Source: an uncultured Gammaproteobacteria bacterium
GTDB taxonomy: Bacteria; Patescibacteriota; Microgenomatia; UBA12405
Assembly (NCBI GenBank): GCA_964405765.1
Contig: CAYOPC010000002.1
Location: 1 to 51,026 of the forward strand
Reading direction: 5' to 3'
Length of the DNA stretch: 51,026 nucleotides
Positions 7,040-35,334 of this stretch are shown here, piece after piece. Below the pieces are notes generated by a model. The model made no database searches. It was not told the DNA's origin and saw only the letters and a list, made by a program, of their open reading frames with translations. The translations under genes and the position numbers were made by a program. Numbering within the stretch: position 1 is the first letter of the stretch; each line of letters opens with the position of its first letter.

Positions 7040-7429
7040 ATGTTGCAATCAACCTCTATCGATTTCTTAATTAGAATCAAAAACGCCGCCAAAGCTGGTA
7101 AAAAAGAACTTACCGCTCCGGCTTCTAATTTTTGTATCAGTATCGCCGATCTTTTAAAAAGATACGGTTATCTTGAAAATTATTCTGTTACCGATGGTGC
7201 TAAAAGAGAAATCAATTTAAAACTGTCTTATATTGACAATCAACCCAAAGTTACTCAGGTTAAGATTTTCTCTAAACCTGGTCGAAGAATCTATGAAAAA
7301 GTTTCTTCCTTACCTTGGGGAAAAACTCGTCAGTCATTAATTATTGTTTCCACTTCCAGTGGTGTTATGTCCCAAAAAGAGGCTAAAACTAAATCTCTTG
7401 GTGGTGAAATCATTGCTGAAATTTATTAA
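7040..7429 (+). CDS. rpsH: 30S ribosomal protein S8
   Basis: The track ORF begins inside rpsN, so I moved the start to ATG 7040 (MLQSTSIDFLIRIKNA). Confidence 0.93.
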   Translation: MLQSTSIDFLIRIKNAAKAGKKELTAPASNFCISIADLLKRYGYLENYSVTDGAKREINLKLSYIDNQPKVTQVKIFSKPGRRIYEKVSSLPWGKTRQSLIIVSTSSGVMSQKEAKTKSLGGEIIAEIY

Positions 7430-7432
7430 TTC

Positions 7433-7460
7433 TTTTAACTTTATACTTTTTACTTTTAAC
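7433..7460. repeat. G-free heptamer repeat module upstream of rplF
   Basis: TTTTAAC TTTATAC TTTTTAC TTTTAAC followed by TAATTT and ATG 7467. Same unit family as at 8008, 32858 and 16990. Confidence 0.8.
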
Positions 7461-7466
7461 TAATTT

Positions 7467-8006
7467 ATGTCCAGAATTGGCAAACAACCCATCACCATCC
7501 CTACCGGAGTCACTGTTACCGTTGATAAGCAATTGGTTACCGTCACTGGTCCCAAAGGCACACTTACTTTAACCGTTCCTTTCAAAATTAACGTTGAAGT
7601 TAAGGACAATCAAGTTATTGTTACTCGGGTTTCTGAAGACAAAAAAATTAAAGCTTGTCATGGTGCTACCCGGGCTCATATCCATAATATGGTTACTGGT
7701 GTTCAAACTCCCTGGACCAAAGAACTTGAAATTAAAGGCACCGGTTACAAGGCTTCTGTCAATGGTAATAAACTCAAAGTTTTAGCTGGTTTCATCCATC
7801 CGGTTGAAATCACCGCTCCGGTTGGCATTGAATTCCAAGTTCCGGAAGAAACCAAAATCGTTGTTATAGGTACCGATCGTATGGTCGTTGGTCAGGTTGC
7901 TAGTAATATCCGCAAAATCAGACCGCCTGAACCTTACAAAGGTAAAGGTATCCGCTATGTTAATGAATTTATCAAGTTAAAAGCCGGCAAAAAAGCTAAA
8001 GCTTAA
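7467..8006 (+). CDS. rplF: 50S ribosomal protein L6
   Basis: 179 aa; MSRIGKQPITIPTGVTV...; PEPYKGKGIRY motif. Confidence 0.95.
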   Translation: MSRIGKQPITIPTGVTVTVDKQLVTVTGPKGTLTLTVPFKINVEVKDNQVIVTRVSEDKKIKACHGATRAHIHNMVTGVQTPWTKELEIKGTGYKASVNGNKLKVLAGFIHPVEITAPVGIEFQVPEETKIVVIGTDRMVVGQVASNIRKIRPPEPYKGKGIRYVNEFIKLKAGKKAKA

Positions 8007-8007
8007 A

Positions 8008-8042
8008 ACTAAACTTTTTACTTTATACTTTTAACTTTAAAC
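8008..8042. repeat. G-free heptamer repeat module upstream of rplR
   Basis: ACTAAAC TTTTTAC TTTATAC TTTTAAC TTTAAAC. Positions 8014-8042 equal 32858-32887 apart from one extra A. Confidence 0.85.
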
Positions 8043-8048
8043 CAAATT

Positions 8049-8393
8049 ATGATTGAACAAAATCAAAAAATTAGAAGATTAAAAAGAATCAGAAATAAAA
8101 TTGCCCAAAATTTAGGCATACCTCGACTTTCTGTTTTTCGCAGTAATCAGCATATTTGGGCTCAAATAATTGACGACAAACATGGGCTTACTTTGGTTTC
8201 TGCTTCTACTAAAACCGTTAAAAGTGCCAAGGGTACCAAATCCCAAAAAGCTGCCGAAGTCGGCACTCAAATAGCTAAACTAGCTCTCACCAAGCACATT
8301 ATCAATGTCCGATTTGATCGAGGCACTTATCGTTATCATGGCCGAGTTAAGGCTTTGGCTGATGGAGCTCGATTAGCCGGTTTAAAATTCTAA
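8049..8393 (+). CDS. rplR: 50S ribosomal protein L18
   Basis: 114 aa; RLSVFRSNQHIWAQIIDD...; YHGRVKALADGAR. Confidence 0.93.
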   Translation: MIEQNQKIRRLKRIRNKIAQNLGIPRLSVFRSNQHIWAQIIDDKHGLTLVSASTKTVKSAKGTKSQKAAEVGTQIAKLALTKHIINVRFDRGTYRYHGRVKALADGARLAGLKF

Positions 8394-16980: not shown

Positions 16981-17031
16981 TTTTAATCATCTTTTTTACT
17001 TTTATACTTTTTAGCCGTATAATACGGTTAT

Positions 17032-17950: not shown

Positions 17951-17988
17951 TCCCTGCCCTGTCAAGGGAAGGGTTGGGAAGGGTTTTG
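17951..17988 (+). repeat. G+C-rich hairpin / G-run element, intergenic copy
   Basis: TCCCTGCCCTGTCAAGGGAAGGGTTGGGAAGGGTTTTG. Hairpin CCCTGCCCT-GTCA-AGGGAAGGG, then GGG runs at 17966, 17971, 17976 and 17981 (G3N2G3N2G3N2G3). Same family as 26934, 27168 and 34908. Confidence 0.8.
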
Positions 17989-17990
17989 TT

Positions 17991-18941
17991 TTAAATCCCT
18001 GACATAAACTCCTTCCAGATTAAATAAAGTTGTGTTGTCGAATAAGCGTCTCTGGCCACGTAGTCAGCAATTTTTTGGAAATCTTTTTTATCAAACAATT
18101 CATTTACGTCGCCACCATGAACTCCGGCCTCCTTAGGATTTTCTATTCCAAAGGCTTTACACAGCATTTCTAATTTAAACCCATGGTTTTGTCTGATTTT
18201 ATTTTGTAAATCAATAAATTTATCTGATCCCCACTTTTTTACTTCAAACGGCACTTTAACTCGATTGATTCCCGAGCGAATTATTAAATACGGAAAATCA
18301 AAATTGTCTCCGTTGTAAGTCACAAATAATTCATAGTCTGTAGTAATTTTCCAAAATTCTGTCAATAAATCTTTTTCTGTTTCAAATATTTTGTAAGTAT
18401 AATTTTCTTTTTCTGGAGTTAAATCTTTTTCTCCTAGTAACAATACCATTCCTTTTTTAGAACCCGGGTTATAAGCCCCAATGGCGCAAACCTTGCCAAA
18501 AATTGAATAAAGCCCGGTTTTTTTCTTAGCTTCCTCTTTGTCTTCAGTTGCTTTTTCCAAATTATTCAGCAAATAATCTTGTTCTGCTTCATCCAACTCT
18601 TCAAATTTTTTCCCCACAGTTTCAATATCAAACACCATAGTTTTAGAAATAAGGGAATATTCGTCCACTTCTTCGCTGTTTACTATCTGACAACTATCAA
18701 TTATCAAGCTAATTTGACCCTTATATTCTTGAGTTTTACCATTCACTTCAATTATTTTCCCTTGCTCTAAATTACATTGGGGGATATTATTATTCCAAAT
18801 TTTTGCCTCAATTATACCGTCTTTATTCGATAATTCCAGCTGAAAATAAACATCACCTTTGCTGGTTTGTTTATTTTCTTTCTTTAAAACTAAAAAATGC
18901 TCATCCCTGACCAGATCATTTGCCTGAAATTTTACCGCCAT
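17991..18941 (-). CDS. OB-fold domain fused to a DEDD-type 3'-5' exonuclease (PolB-exonuclease-like)
   Basis: 316 aa. The N-terminal roughly 90 aa look like an OB fold. After that come VFDIET (Exo I), YNGDNFDFPYL (Exo II) and YVARDAYSTTQL (Exo III). Confidence 0.7.
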   Translation of the reverse strand: MAVKFQANDLVRDEHFLVLKKENKQTSKGDVYFQLELSNKDGIIEAKIWNNNIPQCNLEQGKIIEVNGKTQEYKGQISLIIDSCQIVNSEEVDEYSLISKTMVFDIETVGKKFEELDEAEQDYLLNNLEKATEDKEEAKKKTGLYSIFGKVCAIGAYNPGSKKGMVLLLGEKDLTPEKENYTYKIFETEKDLLTEFWKITTDYELFVTYNGDNFDFPYLIIRSGINRVKVPFEVKKWGSDKFIDLQNKIRQNHGFKLEMLCKAFGIENPKEAGVHGGDVNELFDKKDFQKIADYVARDAYSTTQLYLIWKEFMSGI

Positions 18942-19601: not shown

Positions 19602-19839
19602 AATATTATTCTCCCCCCAAAAAAAATCCATCACCTTGCCAGACTCAATCCTATCAACACCCTTAGGTATAAGTAATTAATATTCTAAAAATAGAATTCA
19701 ATAAAAAGAAACAAACAGCTTTGTTTTATAAATCGTTTTTGAAAATTATCAAAGAATCGGAAAGGAGGGTATCTTATTAATGCCATTTTTCTTAAAAACG
19801 AGTGGAAAAATACCAAAAAACTACCATATATGGTTTTTG

Positions 19840-19913
19840 TCGGGAATACAGGATTCGAACCTGCAACCTCATGCACCCCATGCATGCGCGCTAGCCAATT
19901 GCGCCAATCCCCG
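19840..19913 (-). tRNA. tRNA-Pro (anticodon GGG); CCA not encoded
   Basis: Hand-folded 74 nt: acceptor CGGGGAT/ATTCCCG, D arm GCGC-AATTGGCTA-GCGC, anticodon arm CATGC-ATGGGGT-GCATG (U33, GGG, G37), T arm GCAGG-TTCGAAT-CCTGT, discriminator A followed by CAAAAA. The track ORFs 19685-19885 and 19780-19962 over it are spurious. Confidence 0.85.
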
Positions 19914-19962
19914 TAGTTTTATCAAAGTGCTTATTTTATTAAAACAGAAATTGACACACTAG

Positions 19963-20053
19963 CCTCAGCCACAGGCTGATCCGCCTTTGGCGGAAATTGC
20001 CTGCCCGCAGTCCGAATGTCGGACAGCTTTTGCAGGCGGGCGCCAATCCCCGT
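19963..20053. other. G+C-rich hairpin cluster ending in a duplicate of the tRNA-Pro 5' end
   Basis: Hairpins CAGCC-ACA-GGCTG (19966-19978) and CCGCC-TTT-GGCGG (19981-19993). A nested stem GCCTGCCCGC/GCAGGCGGGC (19999-20041) encloses GTCCGA-ATG-TCGGAC (20010-20024). GCGCCAATCCCCGT at 20040-20053 repeats 19901-19914. Confidence 0.6.
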
Positions 20054-20178
20054 TGCTTGTGTATTTTACTTTTTTTATTCTTAATTTACTAGGCTTCGGT
20101 TTTTATTTGGGTTTTACTCCTTGACTTGATATAGTCTGGCTTGATATCACTATATTGTTAACTTAAAATATAATATTT

Positions 20179-21908: not shown

Positions 21909-22053
21909 AATATACTGATTTCGTTTTTATACTATTACTTATTAAATTAATTTTTTTAACTTTTTACTTAAAACACACACTTTTATGTTTTCTTGTTTTC
22001 TAATTTCCTAAAAAGGCTGCTATAGTTGTGTCGTAAAAAGTATTGGAGGTTCC

Positions 22054-25344: not shown

Positions 25345-26415
25345 ATGAAATTATCCATCGCTATCGTCGGTTTGCCTAATGTCGGCAAATCAACTCTTTT
25401 TAATGCTTTGCTGGGAAAACAAGTTGCTGATGCTAGTAATTATCCTTTTTGTACTATTGACCCTAATGTTGGCGTTGTTGAAGTCCCTGACTCTAAACTT
25501 CCGGTTTTAGCCGAAATTGTTAAAACTGACAAAATTGTTCCGGCTATCGTTGAGTTTGTTGATATTGCCGGTTTGGTCAAAGGTGCTTCTCAAGGCGAAG
25601 GTCTGGGCAACAAATTTTTAACCAACATTCGTGATTGCGATGCTATTTGTCATGTTGTTCGGGCTTTTTCCGATGAGAATATTATTAAAGAAGGTTCAGT
25701 TAACCCTCAGGGAGATTTTGAAGTTATTTGTGCCGAGTTAATTATCAAAGATTTGGAAACTATTGATAAATACATTGATGCCAACAAAAATAATGCCAAG
25801 GAAAAAATCACTAAAAAATTTATTTTGGCTCAAAAATTAAAAACCGAATTAGAGAAGGGAATTTTGGCTGTTAATTTGCAGCTTAGTGACGAAGAAAAAG
25901 AATTCTTAAAAGAATTTTTTCTGCTTACTGCCAAGCCTTATTTTATCGTCGCCAATGTCGACGAAGATACCTATCAAAATATTGCTAATTTTAATCTTAA
26001 AGTTGAAAACTTTGAATCAGTCGTTCCGGTTTGTGCCAAAATCGAATTTGATCTTTCCGAGTTAAATCCGGAAGAACGAAAAAGCTATCTCCAAGAGTTA
26101 GGTGTTTCTCAATCGGGTTTAGAAAGAGTTATCCAAAAAGCTTACGACACACTGGGTCTTCAATCTTACTACACCGCCGGTATTAAAGAAGTTCGGGCTT
26201 GGACTATCAAAAAAGGCGACACTGCTCCCCAGGCTGCTGCCGCCATTCACACCGATTTTGCCAAAGGCTTTATTATGGCTGAAGTTGTCTCCTATCAAGA
26301 TTTTGTTGCTTGTAACGGCCCTGTTGGGGCTAAAGAAGCGGGTAAACTTCGTCATGAAGGTCGTGACTATATCATGCGTCCCGACGATGTCGTCGAATTC
26401 AAAGTCAATGTCTAA
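25345..26415 (+). CDS. ychF: Ribosome-binding ATPase YchF
   Basis: 356 aa; [15 protein letters not shown]-loop, [13 protein letters not shown]-terminal TGS-like domain. Confidence 0.93.
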
Positions 26416-27385
26416 TAAACTTCTTGTCATTTCTGGTCCGACCGCTACTGGTAAAACCGATTTAGCTGTTGAACTGGCCAAAAAATATAACGGTGAATTA
26501 GTTTCCGGTGATTCCTGTCAAATTTATAAAGGTATGGATATTGGTACCGGCAAAGATCAACCGGAGGGTACACCGATTCATTTAATTGATATAGTTACTC
26601 CTGATCAAAAATTTTCTGTCGCTGATTTTCAAAAAATTGGTTTACAAACTATCAAAGAAATTCAATCACGAAATAAATTACCAATTTTAGTTGGTTGCAG
26701 TGGTTTTTATATCGACTCTTTAATTAATTCCAACTACACTACATTTTCCGTTAAACCTCATAAGGTATGGCGTTTTATTTCCCGTCTTTGCTCGGTAAAA
26801 ACTTTACAAAAAATTTACCAATTTTTAGACCAGCCAAACTTTTCTAAATTAAACCATTCCGATGTAAACAATCACTACCGTTTAACCCGAAAAATAGAAA
26901 TTAAAATAGCAAATTTAACCAAAAAAAAACAGTTCCCCGCCCTGTCAAGGGAGGGGCTAGGGGAGGGTTTCGATATCTTGCATATTTCCCTCACCGCCCC
27001 CATGGACTTTCTTTATCAGCGTATCGATGCCCGGGTTCAAAAAAGAATCGATCTTGGTTTTTTAGATGAAGTCAAAACTTTACTTAAAAAATATCAATGG
27101 TCCGATCCAGGTATGCAAATTGCCGCCTATCAATGTCTTAAACCCTATTTTGACAATCAACCAAAACTCCCTGTCCTGTCAAGGGAAGGGTTGGGGAAGG
27201 GTTTGAATCAAGAAAGGGTTTTGTCCGATTGTCTCCAATCTTGGTCTTATGCCGAACACTCTGATGCCCGCCGGCAAAGTTGTTGGTTCAAATCAAAATC
27301 AAACGCTCACTTTTTCGATATCACTCAAAAAGACTTCAAGAGAAAAATATTGACCCAAGTTTCCCGATGGTATACTAAGGTATGA
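26408..27385 (+). CDS. miaA: tRNA dimethylallyltransferase MiaA carrying two in-frame repeat-element insertions
   Basis: Start moved to ATG 26408 ([17 protein letters not shown]), overlapping the ychF stop; the track ORF 26258 start lies inside ychF. Motifs: DSCQIYKGMDIGTGK and ARRQSCWFK. Confidence 0.88.
   Translation: MSNKLLVISGPTATGKTDLAVELAKKYNGELVSGDSCQIYKGMDIGTGKDQPEGTPIHLIDIVTPDQKFSVADFQKIGLQTIKEIQSRNKLPILVGCSGFYIDSLINSNYTTFSVKPHKVWRFISRLCSVKTLQKIYQFLDQPNFSKLNHSDVNNHYRLTRKIEIKIANLTKKKQFPALSREGLGEGFDILHISLTAPMDFLYQRIDARVQKRIDLGFLDEVKTLLKKYQWSDPGMQIAAYQCLKPYFDNQPKLPVLSREGLGKGLNQERVLSDCLQSWSYAEHSDARRQSCWFKSKSNAHFFDITQKDFKRKILTQVSRWYTKV
26934..26972 (+). repeat. G+C-rich hairpin / G-run element, in frame in miaA (copy 1)
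   Basis: TTCCCCGCCCTGTCAAGGGAGGGGCTAGGGGAGGGTTTCG, translated as FPALSREGLGEGF. Four G3-4 runs. Confidence 0.8.
27168..27205 (+). repeat. G+C-rich hairpin / G-run element, in frame in miaA (copy 2)
   Basis: CTCCCTGTCCTGTCAAGGGAAGGGTTGGGGAAGGGTTTG, translated as LPVLSREGLGKGL. Four G3-4 runs. Confidence 0.8.
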
Positions 27386-28356
27386 TCAACAAAAAGTTTG
27401 AAGTTTCTACTAAAACCGTAATTTTTACCGTTTTCTTTTTACTTTCTCTATTTTTGCTCTGGCAAGTCAGAGCTTTAATCGTTTTGCTTTTCATTAGTTT
27501 CGTTTTTATGGAAGCTATCAATCCCGCCATTGTTCGTTTGGAAAAGATGAAAATCCCTCGACCTTTAGCTATTTTAATCATTTACATAATTATTTTAGCT
27601 GTTATTTCCTTTGCTATTGCCGGTATCGTCCCTATATTAGTTGAGCAGACTACTGGATTAGTCCAAACCTTACCAGACACACTTAGCCATATCCAGATTT
27701 TTGGCACCAATCCCATTGATTTATCTTCTCAATTTAAAATTTTAGAAAACCTTCCTGGCGGTATTGCTAGAACTGCCATCTCTTTAGTTTCTAATATTAT
27801 CTCTGCCTTTGTTATCATGTTTCTTACTTTTTACTTGCTCTTAGAAAAGAAAAATTTTCCTAAATATAGCCTGAATATGTTTGGAGAAAATGGTCAGAAA
27901 AAAGCCATTGCTATTATCGAACGGCTAGAAACTCGCCTTGGTAGCTGGGTCACTGCCGAATTTTTCCTCATGAGCATTATTGGTGTTCTTTCTTATATTG
28001 CCTATTTATGTCTTGGCTTAAAATATGCCGTTCCCTTGGCCATTTTTGCTGGTCTTTTAGAAGCTGTCCCGTCCATTGGTCCAACTGTCGCCACCATTCT
28101 AGCTGCTTTAGTTGGTTTTACTATTTCTCCTCTAATTGGAATTTTAACTATTATTGTTGGTGTCATTATTCAACAATTAGAAAATAATATCCTCGTTCCT
28201 AAAATTATGAAGCAAACAGTTGGGTTTAATCCCTTAGTCACCATCCTTTTGATTGCCGCTGGCGCCAAGATTAGTGGTGTTATCGGTGCCATTCTTGCTT
28301 TACCGGTGTTCCTTACCCTCGAAACCATCACTAAAGTCTTAATTGAGAAAAAATAA
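27382..28356 (+). CDS. AI-2E family transporter (PerM/YhhT-like permease)
   Basis: 324 aa multi-TM. The C-terminal part, QQLENNILVPKIMKQTVGFNPLVTILLI...LALPV, is typical of the family. ATGA overlap with the miaA stop. Confidence 0.8.
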   Translation: MINKKFEVSTKTVIFTVFFLLSLFLLWQVRALIVLLFISFVFMEAINPAIVRLEKMKIPRPLAILIIYIIILAVISFAIAGIVPILVEQTTGLVQTLPDTLSHIQIFGTNPIDLSSQFKILENLPGGIARTAISLVSNIISAFVIMFLTFYLLLEKKNFPKYSLNMFGENGQKKAIAIIERLETRLGSWVTAEFFLMSIIGVLSYIAYLCLGLKYAVPLAIFAGLLEAVPSIGPTVATILAALVGFTISPLIGILTIIVGVIIQQLENNILVPKIMKQTVGFNPLVTILLIAAGAKISGVIGAILALPVFLTLETITKVLIEKK

Positions 28357-31483: not shown

Positions 31484-32857
31484 ATGACAAAAAGAAAAAA
31501 GACTCTTAGAAATTTTTGGGTTATCGTCGCTATCACTCTTTTTTGCTCACTTTTAAATTTTCCAAATGAACTTCCAATTAAAATCCATTTTAAAAATATA
31601 AATTTAGAACATACTTTTTATCGTCCTAATTTAAATTTTAAAATTGGTTCATTCACTCCCATAAAAAATATTAACCTCAAATACGGCCTGGATTTAGCTG
31701 GTGGCTCTTCACTCCTTTTTGATATTGATACCTCTGGTGTTAGTTCAGAAAATTTACCTTCAGCTCTGGAATCTCTTAAAAACAACATTGAACGCCGAGT
31801 TAATCTTTTTGGTGTTAGTGAAACCACCGTTCAGATTAACAAACAACAAGATAAGTATCGCCTTCAAGTCGATCTTCCGGGCGTTGAAAACATTAATGAC
31901 GCAGTTAGTCTTATTGGTACCACCGCCAAACTTTCCTTTAAAGGTGAAGTTGAGATCCCTCCGGAAGCCACTGAATCAGCTACTGTTTACGATCTTTTTG
32001 CTAAAGATACAGGGATAAACGGTTCTCATCTGAAACGTTCTTCAGTTGAAATCAATACCAAAAACTCTCAACCTGAGGTCAGTCTTGAATTTAATGATGA
32101 AGGCTCTAACCTATTTGCTCAAGCTACCAAAGAATTATTAAATAAACGGATTGCTATTTTTCTCGACGACTATCCTATCACCGCTCCAGTAGTTCAATCT
32201 GTCATTACTGATGGTAAAGCTTCCATTAGTGGCAATTTTACTTCTCAATCAGCCAAAGAACTCTCGGCTCAACTTAACGCCGGTGCCTTACCTTTATCGA
32301 TCAAATTAGTTCAACAATCTCAGATTGGTGCCACTCTTGGCCAAGACTCACTTAATAAAGGAATTTTTGCTGGTGTTGTTGGTTTAATTTTAGTTTCCCT
32401 TTTTATGATTGCTAATTATGGCAAATTGGGTCTCATCGCCGACATTGGTTTGATTATTTATGGTCTAATTACTCTCAGTCTTTATCGACTTATCCCGGTT
32501 ACATTAACCTTTCCCGGTATTGTCGGCTTTATTCTTTCTATCGGTATGGCAGTTGATAGCAATATCTTAATTTTTGAAAGATTTAAAGAAGAAACCCGAA
32601 AAGGTAAAGACTGGAATATAGCCCTCGAATCTGCTTTTGGTCGAGCTTGGGATTCTATCAAAGACGCCAATACTTGTACTATTATTACTGGTTTTATTTT
32701 GTTTAACCCGTTTAATTGGTCATTTTTAAGTACCTCAGGTATGGTACGTGGCTTTGCTCTCACCCTAATCTTAGGTATTTTTATTGGTATCTTTACTGGA
32801 GTTTTTGTTACCCGTAATCTCTTGCGTGTCTTTATCAGAGAAAAAAATAAAAATTAA
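31484..32857 (+). CDS. secD: Protein translocase subunit SecD
   Basis: 457 aa; N-terminal TM, periplasmic domain, C-terminal six-TM bundle (GIVGFILSIGMAVDSNILIFERFKEE). Confidence 0.9.
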   Translation: MTKRKKTLRNFWVIVAITLFCSLLNFPNELPIKIHFKNINLEHTFYRPNLNFKIGSFTPIKNINLKYGLDLAGGSSLLFDIDTSGVSSENLPSALESLKNNIERRVNLFGVSETTVQINKQQDKYRLQVDLPGVENINDAVSLIGTTAKLSFKGEVEIPPEATESATVYDLFAKDTGINGSHLKRSSVEINTKNSQPEVSLEFNDEGSNLFAQATKELLNKRIAIFLDDYPITAPVVQSVITDGKASISGNFTSQSAKELSAQLNAGALPLSIKLVQQSQIGATLGQDSLNKGIFAGVVGLILVSLFMIANYGKLGLIADIGLIIYGLITLSLYRLIPVTLTFPGIVGFILSIGMAVDSNILIFERFKEETRKGKDWNIALESAFGRAWDSIKDANTCTIITGFILFNPFNWSFLSTSGMVRGFALTLILGIFIGIFTGVFVTRNLLRVFIREKNKN

Positions 32858-32887
32858 CTTTTTACTTTAATACTTTTAACTTTAAAC
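32858..32887. repeat. G-free heptamer repeat module upstream of secF
   Basis: CTTTTTAC TTTAATAC TTTTAAC TTTAAAC; near-identical to 8014-8042. Confidence 0.85.
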
Positions 32888-32893
32888 TAACTT

Positions 32894-33757
32894 ATGAATA
32901 TCATGAAATTAAGACCATTATTTTTTATCTTTTCTCTAATTTTATTGCTTTCATCACTCTTTTCTATTATTTTTTGGAAATTCAAATTATCTATCGATTT
33001 CACTGGTGGTACTATTTGGGAATTAAATTTACCGGAGTTTTCCGAAGATAAAATTAAGGAAGTTTTTTCCAAGAGTAATCTGGAAGTAAAAGAAATTAAT
33101 TTTCTAGGTAACCAAAATTATTCTTTAAAATTTAATGACATTAGTGTTGAACAAAAAACCGGTCTTGATAAAACTCTCAAAGAACTTTATCCAGACTCTA
33201 AAGAATTAAAGTTTGAAACTATTGGGCCAATTTTAGGTCGTGAATTACTTAAAAAAACTATTACTGCTGTTATCCTTTCTTCATTATTTTTATTTCTATT
33301 TATTGGTCGTCGTTTCCGCGATCTGTCTTTTGGTGCTGGAGCTGTTCTAGCTATGCTTCATGACACTTTTATTTTAGTTGGTAGTTTTTCTATCTTAGGC
33401 CACTTTTTTGGTGCCGAGTTTGACTCTCTTTTTGTCACTGCTCTCCTGACTACATTATCTTCATCAGTTCATGATACTGTCGTTACTTTTGACCGTATCC
33501 GTGAACTTAAACGCCAAAGTTTCCAAAAAGACTGGGTCTCATTAGCCAACGAAGCTATTACTGAAACCCTAACCCGTTCTATCAATAATTCCATGACTAT
33601 TATTTTTATGTTAGCTTCTTTAGTTCTATTAGGTGGTACCACTACTCGCTGGTTTGCCGCTGCTTTACTCATTGGTGTTATTTGTGGAACTTATTCGTCC
33701 ATTGGCGTTGCTATTCCTCTCGTTCTTTTTTTCAAAAAATATTCCAAGAAAAAATAA
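32894..33757 (+). CDS. secF: Protein translocase subunit SecF
   Basis: 287 aa; LAMLHDTFILVG... and the six-TM pattern; follows secD. Confidence 0.9.
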   Translation: MNIMKLRPLFFIFSLILLLSSLFSIIFWKFKLSIDFTGGTIWELNLPEFSEDKIKEVFSKSNLEVKEINFLGNQNYSLKFNDISVEQKTGLDKTLKELYPDSKELKFETIGPILGRELLKKTITAVILSSLFLFLFIGRRFRDLSFGAGAVLAMLHDTFILVGSFSILGHFFGAEFDSLFVTALLTTLSSSVHDTVVTFDRIRELKRQSFQKDWVSLANEAITETLTRSINNSMTIIFMLASLVLLGGTTTRWFAAALLIGVICGTYSSIGVAIPLVLFFKKYSKKK

Positions 33758-33945: not shown

Positions 33946-35334
33946 TTATTTAAAACTTTTAATTTTTTCTAATAAAACCTCTCTATCATTTAACTCCGGT
34001 TTTTCTTCCACTTTTTTAAAAATACTATTTAGTACTTCACCTACTTTTCGTCCTGTTTTAATTTCTAAAATTTTCATTACATCTATACCGTTAACTTTTA
34101 AATCTTTTACCGCAAATGGCTGCTTCTGAACCTCTACAATTCGTTTTTTAAACAATTCCCATCGCCAACTGGTTTCTTTAGCTCCGCTACCTAATCTATC
34201 AGCCCGGCGTAAGTCAATCATTTCATCAACATAATCCAAGGTTACATTGCGGATAAATCTTCTCACCGCTTTATCAGTTTGGGTTTCTTGGACGGTAAAC
34301 ATATGCCATCTGACTAATCGAAATAATTGATCCAATTCTTTATTGGACAACCTTAATTTTTTGCCTATACTGACTGCCATTCTTGATCCATAAATTTCAT
34401 GATTATGAAAAGTTCTGGAATCTCCATTACCCTCAGCTGATCTCGGTTTACCCACATCATGAAGCAATGCCGCCAATCTGGTTATCGGGTTTTTACTTTG
34501 GCAATTATCCAAAGTTTTTAAATTATGTGTCCAAACATCATCGATATGATGTCCTTTTTGAGTCATTCCTAGGCCACTAACTAACTCCGGCATAATCTGT
34601 TCCAATAATCCAGATTTTCTTAACCACTCAATTCCCGTTGATGGTGTGGGTAAGAGAAGAATTTTAAATAATTCATCTCTAATTCTTTCTCCGGCAATAT
34701 TATTAATTAATTTGGCATTTTTTTGAATTGACTCTAAAGTTTTTTCTTCAATATTAAAACCTATTTGTCCGGCAATTCTCACTGCTCTCATCAGTCTCAA
34801 AGCATCTTCATTAAACCTTTCATCCGGATTCCCCACTGTTCTAATTAATCTGCTTTGCAGATCCTTTTGCCCTTCAAACAAATCAATTATTTTATAGTTA
34901 TTAAGACTTCCGCCCTCTTTGAGGGAGGATGTCGAGCTTTGCGAGACAAGAGGGTTTTGTATTTCAATCGCCATAGCATTTATAGTGAAATCCCTTCTCT
35001 CTAAATCTTCCTCTAAAGTTTTACCCCATTTAATTTTATCCGGATGCCGGCCGTCACTATAACCTCTTTCAGTCCTAAAAGTCGTTACTTCAAAAATCTC
35101 CCCGTCTTTTTCCACAATACTCAATGTCCCAAAATTATTGTTATAAAAACTGTTTTTCGGAAAAATTTTTTTCATTTCTTCCGGAGTCAAATTAGTTGTA
35201 AAATCCCAATCATTTACTTCTCGTCCTAAAATCAAGTCACGTACCGCCCCGCCGACAATATAAATCTCAGCTTTATTTTCTTGAAATTTAGCAATAATTT
35301 TTTTAATCCTCTCTGGGATTACTAATTCTTTCAT
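33946..35334 (-). CDS. cca: CCA-adding enzyme (class II nucleotidyltransferase with HD domain)
   Basis: 462 aa; GGAVRDLILGREVNDWDFTT, RDFTINAMA, EDALRLMRAVR, HD motif LLHDVGK. Consistent with tRNA-Pro lacking an encoded CCA. Confidence 0.88.
   Translation of the reverse strand: MKELVIPERIKKIIAKFQENKAEIYIVGGAVRDLILGREVNDWDFTTNLTPEEMKKIFPKNSFYNNNFGTLSIVEKDGEIFEVTTFRTERGYSDGRHPDKIKWGKTLEEDLERRDFTINAMAIEIQNPLVSQSSTSSLKEGGSLNNYKIIDLFEGQKDLQSRLIRTVGNPDERFNEDALRLMRAVRIAGQIGFNIEEKTLESIQKNAKLINNIAGERIRDELFKILLLPTPSTGIEWLRKSGLLEQIMPELVSGLGMTQKGHHIDDVWTHNLKTLDNCQSKNPITRLAALLHDVGKPRSAEGNGDSRTFHNHEIYGSRMAVSIGKKLRLSNKELDQLFRLVRWHMFTVQETQTDKAVRRFIRNVTLDYVDEMIDLRRADRLGSGAKETSWRWELFKKRIVEVQKQPFAVKDLKVNGIDVMKILEIKTGRKVGEVLNSIFKKVEEKPELNDREVLLEKIKSFK
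34908..34959 (+). repeat. Long variant of the G+C-rich element, in frame inside cca on the antisense coding strand
   Basis: TTCCGCCCTCTTTGAGGGAGGATGTCGAGCTTTGCGAGACAAGAGGGTTTTG. It shares TTCC-CGCCCT-loop-AGGGAGG...GAGGGTTT with 26934-26972. It encodes NPLVSQSSTSSLKEGGS, placed just after the RDFTINAMA motif. Confidence 0.65.

Follow-up and report, generated by a model that had tools for sequence, protein, structure and literature searches.

A short dispersed repeat of Candidatus Shapirobacteria and other Patescibacteria, inserted in frame in miaA, is probably a class II intrastrand triplex motif

We analyzed a 51,026-nucleotide stretch of DNA (GenBank assembly GCA_964405765.1, contig CAYOPC010000002.1, positions 1 to 51,026; hereafter the window, in which all coordinates are counted from the first base) that carries two in-frame copies of a G+C-rich repeat within miaA, the gene for tRNA dimethylallyltransferase. 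The repeat is a dispersed element of ~37 nt that is common in Candidatus Shapirobacteria and other bacteria belonging to the candidate phyla radiation (CPR; Patescibacteria). An earlier note on this DNA had presented it as a hairpin with a formal G-quadruplex (G4) motif on the mRNA-sense strand. Judging from the arrangement and co-variation of its three segments, we think that the element fits the description of a class II intrastrand triplex motif better than that of a hairpin joined to a G4, and put the probability of this reading at roughly 70%.

The class II motif, earlier described as BoxC and PIT elements, was defined by Holder et al. 2015 (PMC4666352) as a pyrimidine arm, a purine arm and a reverse-Hoogsteen block on one strand (ITxF class II), with stems of 6-15 nt and at most one mismatch. 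The elements in the window agree in sequence with both the class II block order and the antiparallel triad, or mirror, pattern.

The third segment mirrors the purine arm

Read on its G-rich strand, the element is 36-38 nt long and consists of arm A (CCCYGCCCT), the loop GTCA, arm B (AGGGARGGG), a linker of 2-3 nt (mostly TTA), segment C (GGGRAGGGT) and a terminal TT; the copies in the window read CCCYGYCCT-GTCA-AGGGARGGG-N2-3-GGGRAGGGT. Arms A and B can pair by Watson-Crick rules, and variants in one are compensated in the other, while segment C is the mirror image of arm B, being neither a direct copy of B nor the complement of A. Asymmetric element types, given as arm A/arm B/segment C, include CCCTGCCCT/AGGGAAGGG/GGGAAGGGT, CCCCGCCCT/AGGGAGGGG/GGGGAGGGT and CCCTCCCCT/AGGGGAGGG/GGGAGGGGT, together with a TCTCCCTT/AGGGGAGA/AGAGGGGT family; written out with their linkers, two types read …AGGGAGGGG-TTA-GGGGAGGGT and …AGGGGAGGG-CTG-GGGAGGGGT.

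A metagenome scan in which the co-varying positions were left free brought the set to 151 copies, representing 92 distinct sequences at 112 distinct insertion sites. The combinations found at the variable positions of arm A/arm B/segment C were TG/AA/AA (72 copies), CG/AG/GA (19), CA/AG/GA (9), CG/AG/GT (7), CT/AG/GT (6), TC/GA/AG (6), TC/GA/TG (3) and rarer ones. Counting G opposite G, and A or T opposite A, as mirror-compatible, we determined that 53 of the 57 copies for which the mirror and direct predictions differ are fully mirror-compatible, and that none is direct-compatible; the search pattern used to collect family copies would have accepted direct versions. T occurs in segment C only opposite A. 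When segment C was permuted among the 92 distinct sequences, the mirror count averaged 39.7 and reached at most 56, compared with 88 observed. A mirror repeat cannot arise by any templated copying, and segment C, if folded antiparallel onto arm B, would produce precisely the triads expected in a purine-motif triplex, namely G·G-C, A·A-T and T·A-T.

As counts from a single family reduce to a few subfamily events, we extended the comparison to other families. A sequence-agnostic finder detected 119 motifs lacking the GTCA-loop core in CPR-like loci, and the mirror rule was assessed on 153 pyrimidine/purine hairpins of other families with asymmetric 9-nt purine arms, using head-to-head comparison of 9-mers. 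Within 25 nt on the 3' side of these hairpins a perfect mirror was found 43 times and a perfect direct repeat once. The mirror was the better match in 82 cases and the direct repeat in 13 (p=2e-13), over 24 distinct purine arms, and the third segment lay on the 3' side in 74 cases and on the 5' side in three. Block order was also one-sided, with 246 class II arrangements (pyrimidine arm, purine arm, reverse-Hoogsteen block) and four class I arrangements in CPR-like loci.

Many elements of these sister families carry a small G+C-rich hairpin-like sequence in loop 2, between the purine arm and the mirror segment (e.g., tgtcccgatttatcgggac and tgcccgaagggc; L020, L042, L104, L107, L108, L123, L192 and other loci, and positions 34925-34947 of the window). 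The nested peptide inserts of MiaA orthologs described below correspond to such loop-2 hairpin sequences, which suggests that the elements are modular or nested.

The strongest competitor is that the four G3-4 runs fold as an intramolecular G4, in DNA or mRNA, and that this is the selected feature, with the 5' hairpin secondary. In its favor, all copies have four runs of three or more G separated by loops of 1-3 nt, and no other sequence in the 51 kb of the window has a canonical G4 motif; moreover, G-rich triplex sequences are known to be capable of forming quadruplexes (PMC4666352). The earlier note was right that the formal G4 rule applies, but a G4 leaves the C-rich arm, the mirror co-variation and the block order unexplained: neither a conserved C-rich arm with compensation between arms A and B, nor mirror symmetry between G-blocks 1-2 and 3-4 (53 versus 0 in this family, 82 versus 13 in the others), is needed for one. 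Substitutions opposite A are confined to A and T, a pattern that fits triads and not tetrads, and some sister-family members (for example, those with AAGGGAGA / AGAGGGAT stems) have fewer than four G3 runs. TM-ECO, a triplex repeat of E. coli and other Proteobacteria, also conforms to the G4 rule through its four G3 runs, yet its 18 imino signals in nuclear magnetic resonance (NMR) spectra are consistent with a triplex, and a G4 was excluded (PMC4666352). We therefore consider a G4 as the selected feature unlikely.

Copies in the window and their surroundings

The features of the window that belong to the element and its host gene are as follows.

26408..27385, + strand: miaA (tRNA dimethylallyltransferase), the host gene, a 325-aa ORF (Pfam IPPT, E=1.2e-44)
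26935..26970, + strand: copy 1, at MiaA site 1, residues ~175-187 (from the sequence and a class II finder match)
26935-26943, + strand: copy 1, pyrimidine (Y) arm CCCCGCCCT
26944-26947, + strand: copy 1, loop GTCA
26948-26956, + strand: copy 1, purine (R) arm AGGGAGGGG
26957-26959, + strand: copy 1, linker CTA
26960-26968, + strand: copy 1, mirror (putative reverse-Hoogsteen) segment GGGGAGGGT
26969-26970, + strand: copy 1, terminal TT
27169..27204, + strand: copy 2, at MiaA site 2, residues ~254-266 (from the sequence)
27169-27177, + strand: copy 2, Y arm CCCTGTCCT
27178-27181, + strand: copy 2, loop GTCA
27182-27190, + strand: copy 2, R arm AGGGAAGGG
27191-27193, + strand: copy 2, linker TTG
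27194-27202, + strand: copy 2, mirror segment GGGAAGGGT
27203-27204, + strand: copy 2, terminal TT
17952..17987, + strand: copy 3, intergenic (core match and class II finder)
17952-17960, 17961-17964 and 17965-17973, + strand: copy 3, Y arm, loop and R arm
17976-17984, + strand: copy 3, mirror segment, preceded by linker TT and followed by TTT
34909..34955, + strand: sister-family class II element inside cca, antisense to cca and facing the same way as copies 1-3; Y arm TCCGCCCT, loop CTTTG, R arm AGGGAGGA, mirror segment AAGAGGGT

In a window with a G+C content of 36%, the 16-mer core CCTGTCAAGGGARGGG occurs three times, always on the + strand, where 0.31 occurrences are expected. The canonical G4 rule (G3+ N1-7 G3+ N1-7 G3+ N1-7 G3+) is matched on either strand only by copies 1-3. 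Applied with 8-nt stems and at most one Watson-Crick and one triad mismatch, the sequence-agnostic three-segment finder picked out the elements at 17952, 26935 and 34909. All three are on the + strand; the - strand of the window and 30 Markov-shuffled windows gave no match. Copy 2 carries one extra T.G wobble. Rfam searches, run on the whole window with the gathering threshold and on 26300-27500 with a limit of E<=1, detected only tRNAs and no match to the element.

The earlier note had placed two G-rich repeat copies in frame in miaA, in the same orientation and 234 nt apart; both quoted sequences are present and the spacing is correct, although the quoted strings (40 and 39 nt) start one base earlier than stated, at 26933 and 27167. 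The recognizable MiaA motifs lie outside both copies, as it had said. The intergenic copy that it placed at 17951 is a true family member (17952 here), while the one that it placed at 34908 in cca (34909 here) has the same architecture but belongs to a different sequence family.

Copies 1 and 2 are translated in the miaA frame as FPALSREGLGEGF and LPVLSREGLGKGL. Copy 3 is flanked by two minus-strand genes, a PolB-exo-like gene with its stop at 17991 and a 75-aa gene starting at ~17934. In the cca element, loop 2 is 18 nt long and apparently capable of folding into a separate small hairpin (TGTCGAGCTTTGCGAGAC). Relative to the syntenic relative L238 (L numbers designate loci throughout), the cca protein has a variable insert at the position of the element, and the linker family of this element (ATGTCGAG...ACA) is also found, in the sense orientation, at miaA site 1 of the ortholog in L241.

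The closest named relatives of the window MiaA, among 5371 homologs, are the MiaA proteins of Candidatus Shapirobacteria. The start of miaA overlaps the stop of ychF (26408-26415), its stop overlaps the start of a gene for an AI-2E-family transporter (27382-27385), and the order ychF-miaA-transporter is kept in L238, L240, L241 and L242; these overlaps and the conserved order suggest a translationally coupled operon. The window begins with an apparent ribosomal-protein operon, as judged from ORF layout and synteny with the annotated L238.

Two further repeats were noted in the window. An AT-rich motif of ~40 nt (…CTTTTTACTTTATACTTTTAACTTTAAAC…ATG) recurs directly upstream of start codons, for example of the ORFs starting at 7467, 8049 and 32894 (positions 7416-7470, 7998-8052 and 32843-32897; also 16983-17013 and 21943-21973; repeat families D2, D8, D9 and D16), and could serve the organism as a common promoter or leader signal. 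The end region of a tRNA-Pro gene (19839-19913, minus strand), GCGCCAATCCCCGT…, is repeated 139 nt away (19901-19940 and 20040-20079; family D3); such a partial tRNA duplication can mark an old integration site.

The copies in miaA are insertions

Both copies in miaA are insertions rather than ancestral protein sequence. MiaA orthologs at ~65-88% identity range from 300 to 339 aa, and an alignment of 50 of them confines the length variation to the two insert sites. L238 (GCA_964558195.1) has the copy at site 1, with one C-to-T change that turns a C-G pair into a T.G wobble, and lacks the copy at site 2; in the pairwise DNA alignment the window has a clean insertion of 54 nt (18 codons), and MiaA is 325 aa long in the window versus 307 aa in L238.

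27158..27211, + strand: 54-nt stretch missing from L238, made up of copy 2 with ~9 nt and ~8 nt of flanking sequence (boundaries shift by a few nt with the alignment)

L238 also lacks the copy at 17952 in its orthologous intergenic region. Matching of flanks among ~240 loci revealed no other pairs of empty and filled sites.

Over 97 orthologs, site 1 is 17-29 aa long and site 2 is 12-38 aa long. The GTCA-loop family occupies site 1 in 18 of the 97 and site 2 in two, and other hairpin-type inserts (PFHQGE.., SLFKGD.., PLSKGE..) occupy site 1 in at least 18 and site 2 in at least 22; some inserts are nested, e.g., LPALSR-SIDTPERV-EGLGKGF. An AlphaFold2 model built on the MiaA alignment (mean pLDDT, the predicted local confidence score, 74.6) has six stretches below 50, two of which, residues 173-186 and 253-264, are the two inserts, each lying between well-predicted secondary-structure elements. 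Alignment with the solved structure of MiaA from Bacillus halodurans (2qgn) leaves a gap at site 2 and pairs site 1 with a loop of similar length. Both miaA sites are indel hot spots across the 97 orthologs and lie in low-confidence loops of the model. The copies survive there because their length is a multiple of three, the frame used has no stops and the loops vary in length among orthologs; the encoded peptides would be passengers.

These results bear out the proposal of the earlier note that a dispersed repeat had been inserted in frame: the 12-13 aa segments are lineage-specific, are not conserved in distant orthologs and coincide in the structure model with poorly predicted loops. The opposite view, that these peptides are conserved parts of MiaA and the DNA similarity is secondary, could draw on the presence of the same site-1 peptide in 18 orthologs. 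It is contradicted by orthologs at 70-88% identity that lack the peptides, by the occurrence of the same DNA between genes and, in four reading frames, within other genes, and by the segments themselves, which have pLDDT values below 50 and, at site 2, are absent from solved MiaA structures. An ancestral or functional protein segment was consequently ruled out by the empty sites and the non-coding copies, and we assign it a negligible probability. Readings as an intein, an intron or a translational bypass were likewise rejected, as the frame is always preserved and open frames are used.

The orthologous sites at L056 5533 and L227 3886 hold different subtypes, one with a CT…TTG linker and the other with an AG…TTT linker, a hint that copies convert one another or that a site can be inserted into more than once. 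As, in addition, the same two miaA loops are occupied by different repeat families, repeated insertion into a few tolerant sites, or conversion between elements, is suggested.

Spread of the family and tolerance of coding sequence

Copies outside the window, the search for which the earlier note had called for, proved numerous in related genomes. A scan with the 16-mer core over 185,579 species genomes (596 Gb) gave mostly chance matches, as expected for a 16-mer, and a complete element in ~35 of the genome matches, concentrated in CPR metagenome-assembled genomes (MAGs). Complete elements were found mainly in Shapirobacteria, in a Parcubacteria MAG (three contigs with at least seven copies between them), in Patescibacteria UBA1372 and in further MAGs where the flanks are AT-rich. 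From the observed densities we estimate, very roughly, that such repeat families together amount to ~70-130 copies per genome. A scan of viral contigs for the element gave no matches and thus no sign of carriage by phages. We found no publication linking CPR or Patescibacteria with triplex, G4 or MITE/REP-type repeats in a literature search whose journal coverage was incomplete.

Among 138 copies, 66 (~48%) lie at least 40 codons inside long ORFs, 33 in the sense and 33 in the antisense orientation. Of these intragenic copies, 64 use the four frames that stay open, whereas the third antisense frame contains TGA. Recurrent encoded peptides are LPALSREGLGKGF, PCPVKGRVGEGF, KPFPNPSLDRAG and NPSQTLPLTGQG. 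The emphasis that the earlier note placed on the mRNA-sense strand is not supported, and a G4 in mRNA cannot be the general role of the element, because sense and antisense copies are equal in number; as shown below, orientation follows the composition of the chromosome strand instead. Conservation of the flanks is limited to the TT that follows GGGT (96% and 91%), the upstream flank being merely AT-rich.

The 16-mer matches also led to two groups of repeats outside the CPR. In cultured marine Flavobacteriaceae (L029, L036, L038, L047, L048, L049, L088 and L095) the 16-mer CCTGTCAAGGGAAGGG recurs as one arm in a long, apparently conserved inverted repeat (…GTGCCTGTCAAGGGAAGGG-~30 nt-CCCTTCCCTTACAGGAC), a different hairpin element that has no third segment. 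In Nitrospirota/Desulfobacterota-type MAGs (L008, L009, L033, L059, L093, L099 and L118) the GTCA core is accompanied by an extra C-rich block on its 5' side (CACCCTCCCC-nnn-CCCT-CCTGTCA-AGGGAGGGG), and in the Nitrospirota-type L008, L016, L093 and L099, the only matches with true BoxC-like copies, a classic BoxC-like unit, CCCTCTCCCCTTGCGGGAGAGGGTTAGGGTGAGG, adjoins the GTCA-core element. Related triplex-type repeats therefore occur well outside the CPR.

Orientation follows the chromosome strand

Among 84 loci that are 4 kb or longer, 79 carry the G-rich form of the element on the otherwise C-rich strand (p=3e-18), and the GC skew of the strand bearing it averages -0.20 and reaches -0.39. 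Counted per distinct insertion site, the polarity is 76 versus 7 (76/83), and other class II families share it (103 versus 16). All nine loci with multiple copies are co-oriented and none is mixed; in the window, cumulative GC skew falls monotonically and all four elements are on the + strand. Copies were left unmasked, which could only weaken the polarity signal, since the elements themselves are G-rich. Gene-strand balance is unrelated to the orientation of the element (43 versus 41 loci). Taken together, the polarity and the gene balance indicate that orientation follows chromosome strand asymmetry and not transcription.

An RNA-level element, be it an intrinsic terminator, an attenuator or a hairpin plus U-run that stabilizes mRNA, is very hard to reconcile with this behavior. 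A G+C-rich hairpin does lie upstream of TTT(T), with longer T-runs in some intergenic copies, but the third segment separates the T-run from the hairpin, half of the copies are inside ORFs with sense and antisense equally represented, orientation ignores gene direction and no Rfam match was obtained. In addition, neither promoter nor terminator activity was seen with PIT elements, and RNA does not adopt purine-motif triplexes (PMC4666352). We consider this explanation highly improbable.

More attention is due to the possibility that the element is a chromosome-polarity signal, in which the octamer GGGNAGGG directs translocases of the FtsK/SpoIIIE type toward the terminus. This octamer, which forms segment C, is present at least once on the G-rich strand of 123 of the 138 copies, and twice in 84; it is the KOPS consensus that the FtsK translocase of E. 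coli reads. The polarity is strict and does not depend on genes; the G-rich form is on the ribosomal-protein-operon strand in the window and in L159, and the single copy to the left of dnaA-dnaN in L193 points away from these genes. Under the GC-skew rule, however, placing the G-rich form on the C-rich strand means placing it on the lagging strand, the non-permissive KOPS orientation, and 15 of the 138 copies, as well as many sister families, lack the octamer. As these octamer-free families have the same polarity, and as binding of FtsK explains neither the C-rich arm nor the mirror rule, we regard a KOPS-like role as improbable, slightly more so than the G4.

The standard convention, restated by Chen et al. 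2020 (PMC7111523), takes the G-rich strand to be the leading one. If this convention applies here, the G-rich strand of the element would be the nascent lagging strand, and hence the leading-strand template, while its C-rich complement would lie on the transiently single-stranded lagging-strand template, so that the triplex/G4-prone purine strand would not be the exposed template. This fits the behavior of GAA/TTC triplex repeats, at which forks stall if the purine strand serves as lagging-strand template.

A DnaA motif scan of the loci pointed only to L193, a weakly skewed Nomurabacteria-type contig with dnaA-dnaN, and a protein search with the DnaA of L193 found only relatives at 87% identity or above, none from Shapirobacteria. 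Near position 3000 of L141, GC skew switches sign (from -0.17 to +0.18) with no origin genes nearby and a 774-aa protein encoded to the right; this may be the boundary of an inversion or acquisition rather than an origin or terminus. The CPR-like contigs (L119-L237 and the window) show GC skew down to -0.39 over 8 kb with no gene-strand or tRNA bias, and so strong a skew without gene-strand bias is unusual for bacteria.

Comparison with known repeats

Judged by its sequence, the element appears to be of the same structural kind as the BoxC/PIT/TM-ECO repeats of E. coli and other Proteobacteria. TM-ECO reads 5'-CCCTCNCCC N3-6 GGGNGAGGG N3 GGGNGAGGG-3' over 37 nt, with TTA or CCG as loop 2, and has 3610 copies in 262 proteobacterial genomes; its oligonucleotides form a very stable triplex (Tm 70-82 C), as determined by circular dichroism and NMR, and PIT/TM-ECO loci are unusually variable between strains (PMC4666352). 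Shared features include a length of ~37 nt, the succession of a 9-nt C-rich arm, a loop of 3-6 nt, a 9-nt G-rich arm, a loop of ~3 nt (often TTA) and a 9-nt third segment, the common tolerance of one mismatch, many highly similar copies per genome, the lack of an associated transposase and local indel variability.

The two differ in stem sequence (CCCYGCCCT/AGGGARGGG/GGGRAGGGT in the CPR, CCCTCNCCC/GGGNGAGGG/GGGNGAGGG in TM-ECO), and the copies in the window do not conform to the strict TM-ECO/BoxC consensus. The purine arm of TM-ECO, GGGAGAGGG, is itself mirror-symmetric, so that mirror and direct third segments cannot be told apart, whereas the asymmetric CPR stems allow the distinction. Hosts of the CPR element have a GC content of 30-45%. 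While TM-ECO in E. coli MG1655 is intergenic and has no strand-orientation bias, 66 of the 138 CPR elements lie deep in ORFs, ~90% are polar and no inverted pairs were seen. New relative to the known class are thus the CPR host clade, the frequent in-frame residence in genes and the strong strand polarity.

The Rickettsia palindromic elements (RPEs), to which the earlier note had likened the repeat, share short in-frame insertion into protein genes, tolerated extra peptides and small, reduced, AT-rich genomes. RPEs are plain palindromes of ~100-150 bp without a mirror third segment, are known only from Rickettsia and are not known to show replication-strand polarity. The CPR element, at 36-38 nt, is three-block and CPR-hosted, and a sequence relationship is not expected; the parallel therefore extends to the behavior of in-frame intragenic insertion but not to membership, given the length of ~37 nt as against ~100-150 nt.

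REP/BIME sequences, mobilized by RAYT (IS200/IS605-like Y1 transposases), are likewise G+C-rich hairpin repeats of 20-40 nt in high copy number. REPs are extragenic by definition, have a conserved 5' GTAG and no third mirror segment, and co-occur with a RAYT gene; the CPR element differs in that about half of its copies are intragenic, it has no conserved 5' GTAG and does have a third mirror segment, and no RAYT was found among the 14 window ORFs scanned. By analogy, REP-like recognition of a folded single-stranded DNA, coupled to the replication strands, is a plausible model for its spread and polarity. With H-DNA and GAA-TTC repeats the element shares a mirror-repeat purine tract that can form reverse-Hoogsteen triads. 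The orientation-dependent interference of such triplex repeats (H-DNA, GAA/TTC) with replication is established. H-DNA arises from duplex DNA under supercoiling and does not require a separate pyrimidine arm on the same strand, whereas the CPR element would be a three-block fold of a single strand, in one block order (246 versus 4).

Proposed mechanism

We propose that the G-rich strand, when transiently single-stranded, would fold so that arms A and B form a Watson-Crick hairpin and segment C lies as an antiparallel third strand on the purine arm, and that this triplex fold of single-stranded DNA may be the feature that is selected or recognized. The polarity would then be related to replication, either through orientation-specific insertion at the fork or through selection against fork-stalling orientations, and the element would spread by a trans-acting mechanism. 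Going further, the co-variation could be taken as evolutionary evidence that an intrastrand DNA triplex forms and is selected in cells, that the elements fold at the replication fork, and that they represent structure-dependent, replication-coupled mobile DNA or a genome-wide strand-marking system of the CPR. This extension is tentative, and we hold it to be appreciably less probable than the description of the element as a class II motif.

A number of observations count against the triplex reading or its extension. The co-variation counts carry no phylogenetic correction, and those within the GTCA-loop family amount to a handful of subfamily events, so that independent support for a triplex comes mainly from the other stem families. 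Every copy also conforms to the formal G4 rule. The Watson-Crick hairpin alone is no more stable than composition-matched shuffles (z of -1.3, +0.3 and -1.9; ViennaRNA, hairpin only), and the hairpin as an explanation on its own was dropped for this reason. For TM-ECO, the triplex was not detected in vivo by dimethyl sulfate footprinting (PMC4666352). With regard to mobility, the copies examined have no conserved target, target-site duplication or terminal inverted repeats, and a Pfam scan of 14 window ORFs revealed neither a transposase, including any Y1 transposase domain, nor a translocase. As for replication, the leading/lagging assignment rests only on the GC-skew convention, gene proxies being uninformative: tRNA orientation shows no bias relative to skew (17 versus 18) and no rRNA genes were found in the loci. 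Of the three loci with a ribosomal-protein operon (the window, L159 and L238), two, the window and L159, have it on the C-rich strand together with the G-rich form of the element, an arrangement that would suggest the reverse assignment.

Implications

The in vivo formation and relevance of intrastrand DNA triplexes have been open since PIT and BoxC elements were described. Owing to the asymmetry of the CPR stems, a co-variation argument of the kind used for RNA structure can be applied to a DNA triplex, with dozens of unrelated stem sequences obeying the mirror, or triad, rule. The strand polarity ties the elements to replication and predicts that their orientation will flip at the origin and terminus and that they will stall replication in an orientation-dependent manner.

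For the proteins of the CPR, passenger inserts of 12-18 aa inflate and diversify surface loops and create indel hot spots, and because of them CPR proteomes can be misaligned, wrongly placed in phylogenies or given misleading domain annotation; at the same time, they show where enzymes, MiaA and the CCA-adding enzyme among them, tolerate insertions. If the elements do fold as triplexes at the replication fork, the CPR would possess either a new kind of mobile DNA or a form of strand marking neutral enough to run through hundreds of protein-coding genes.

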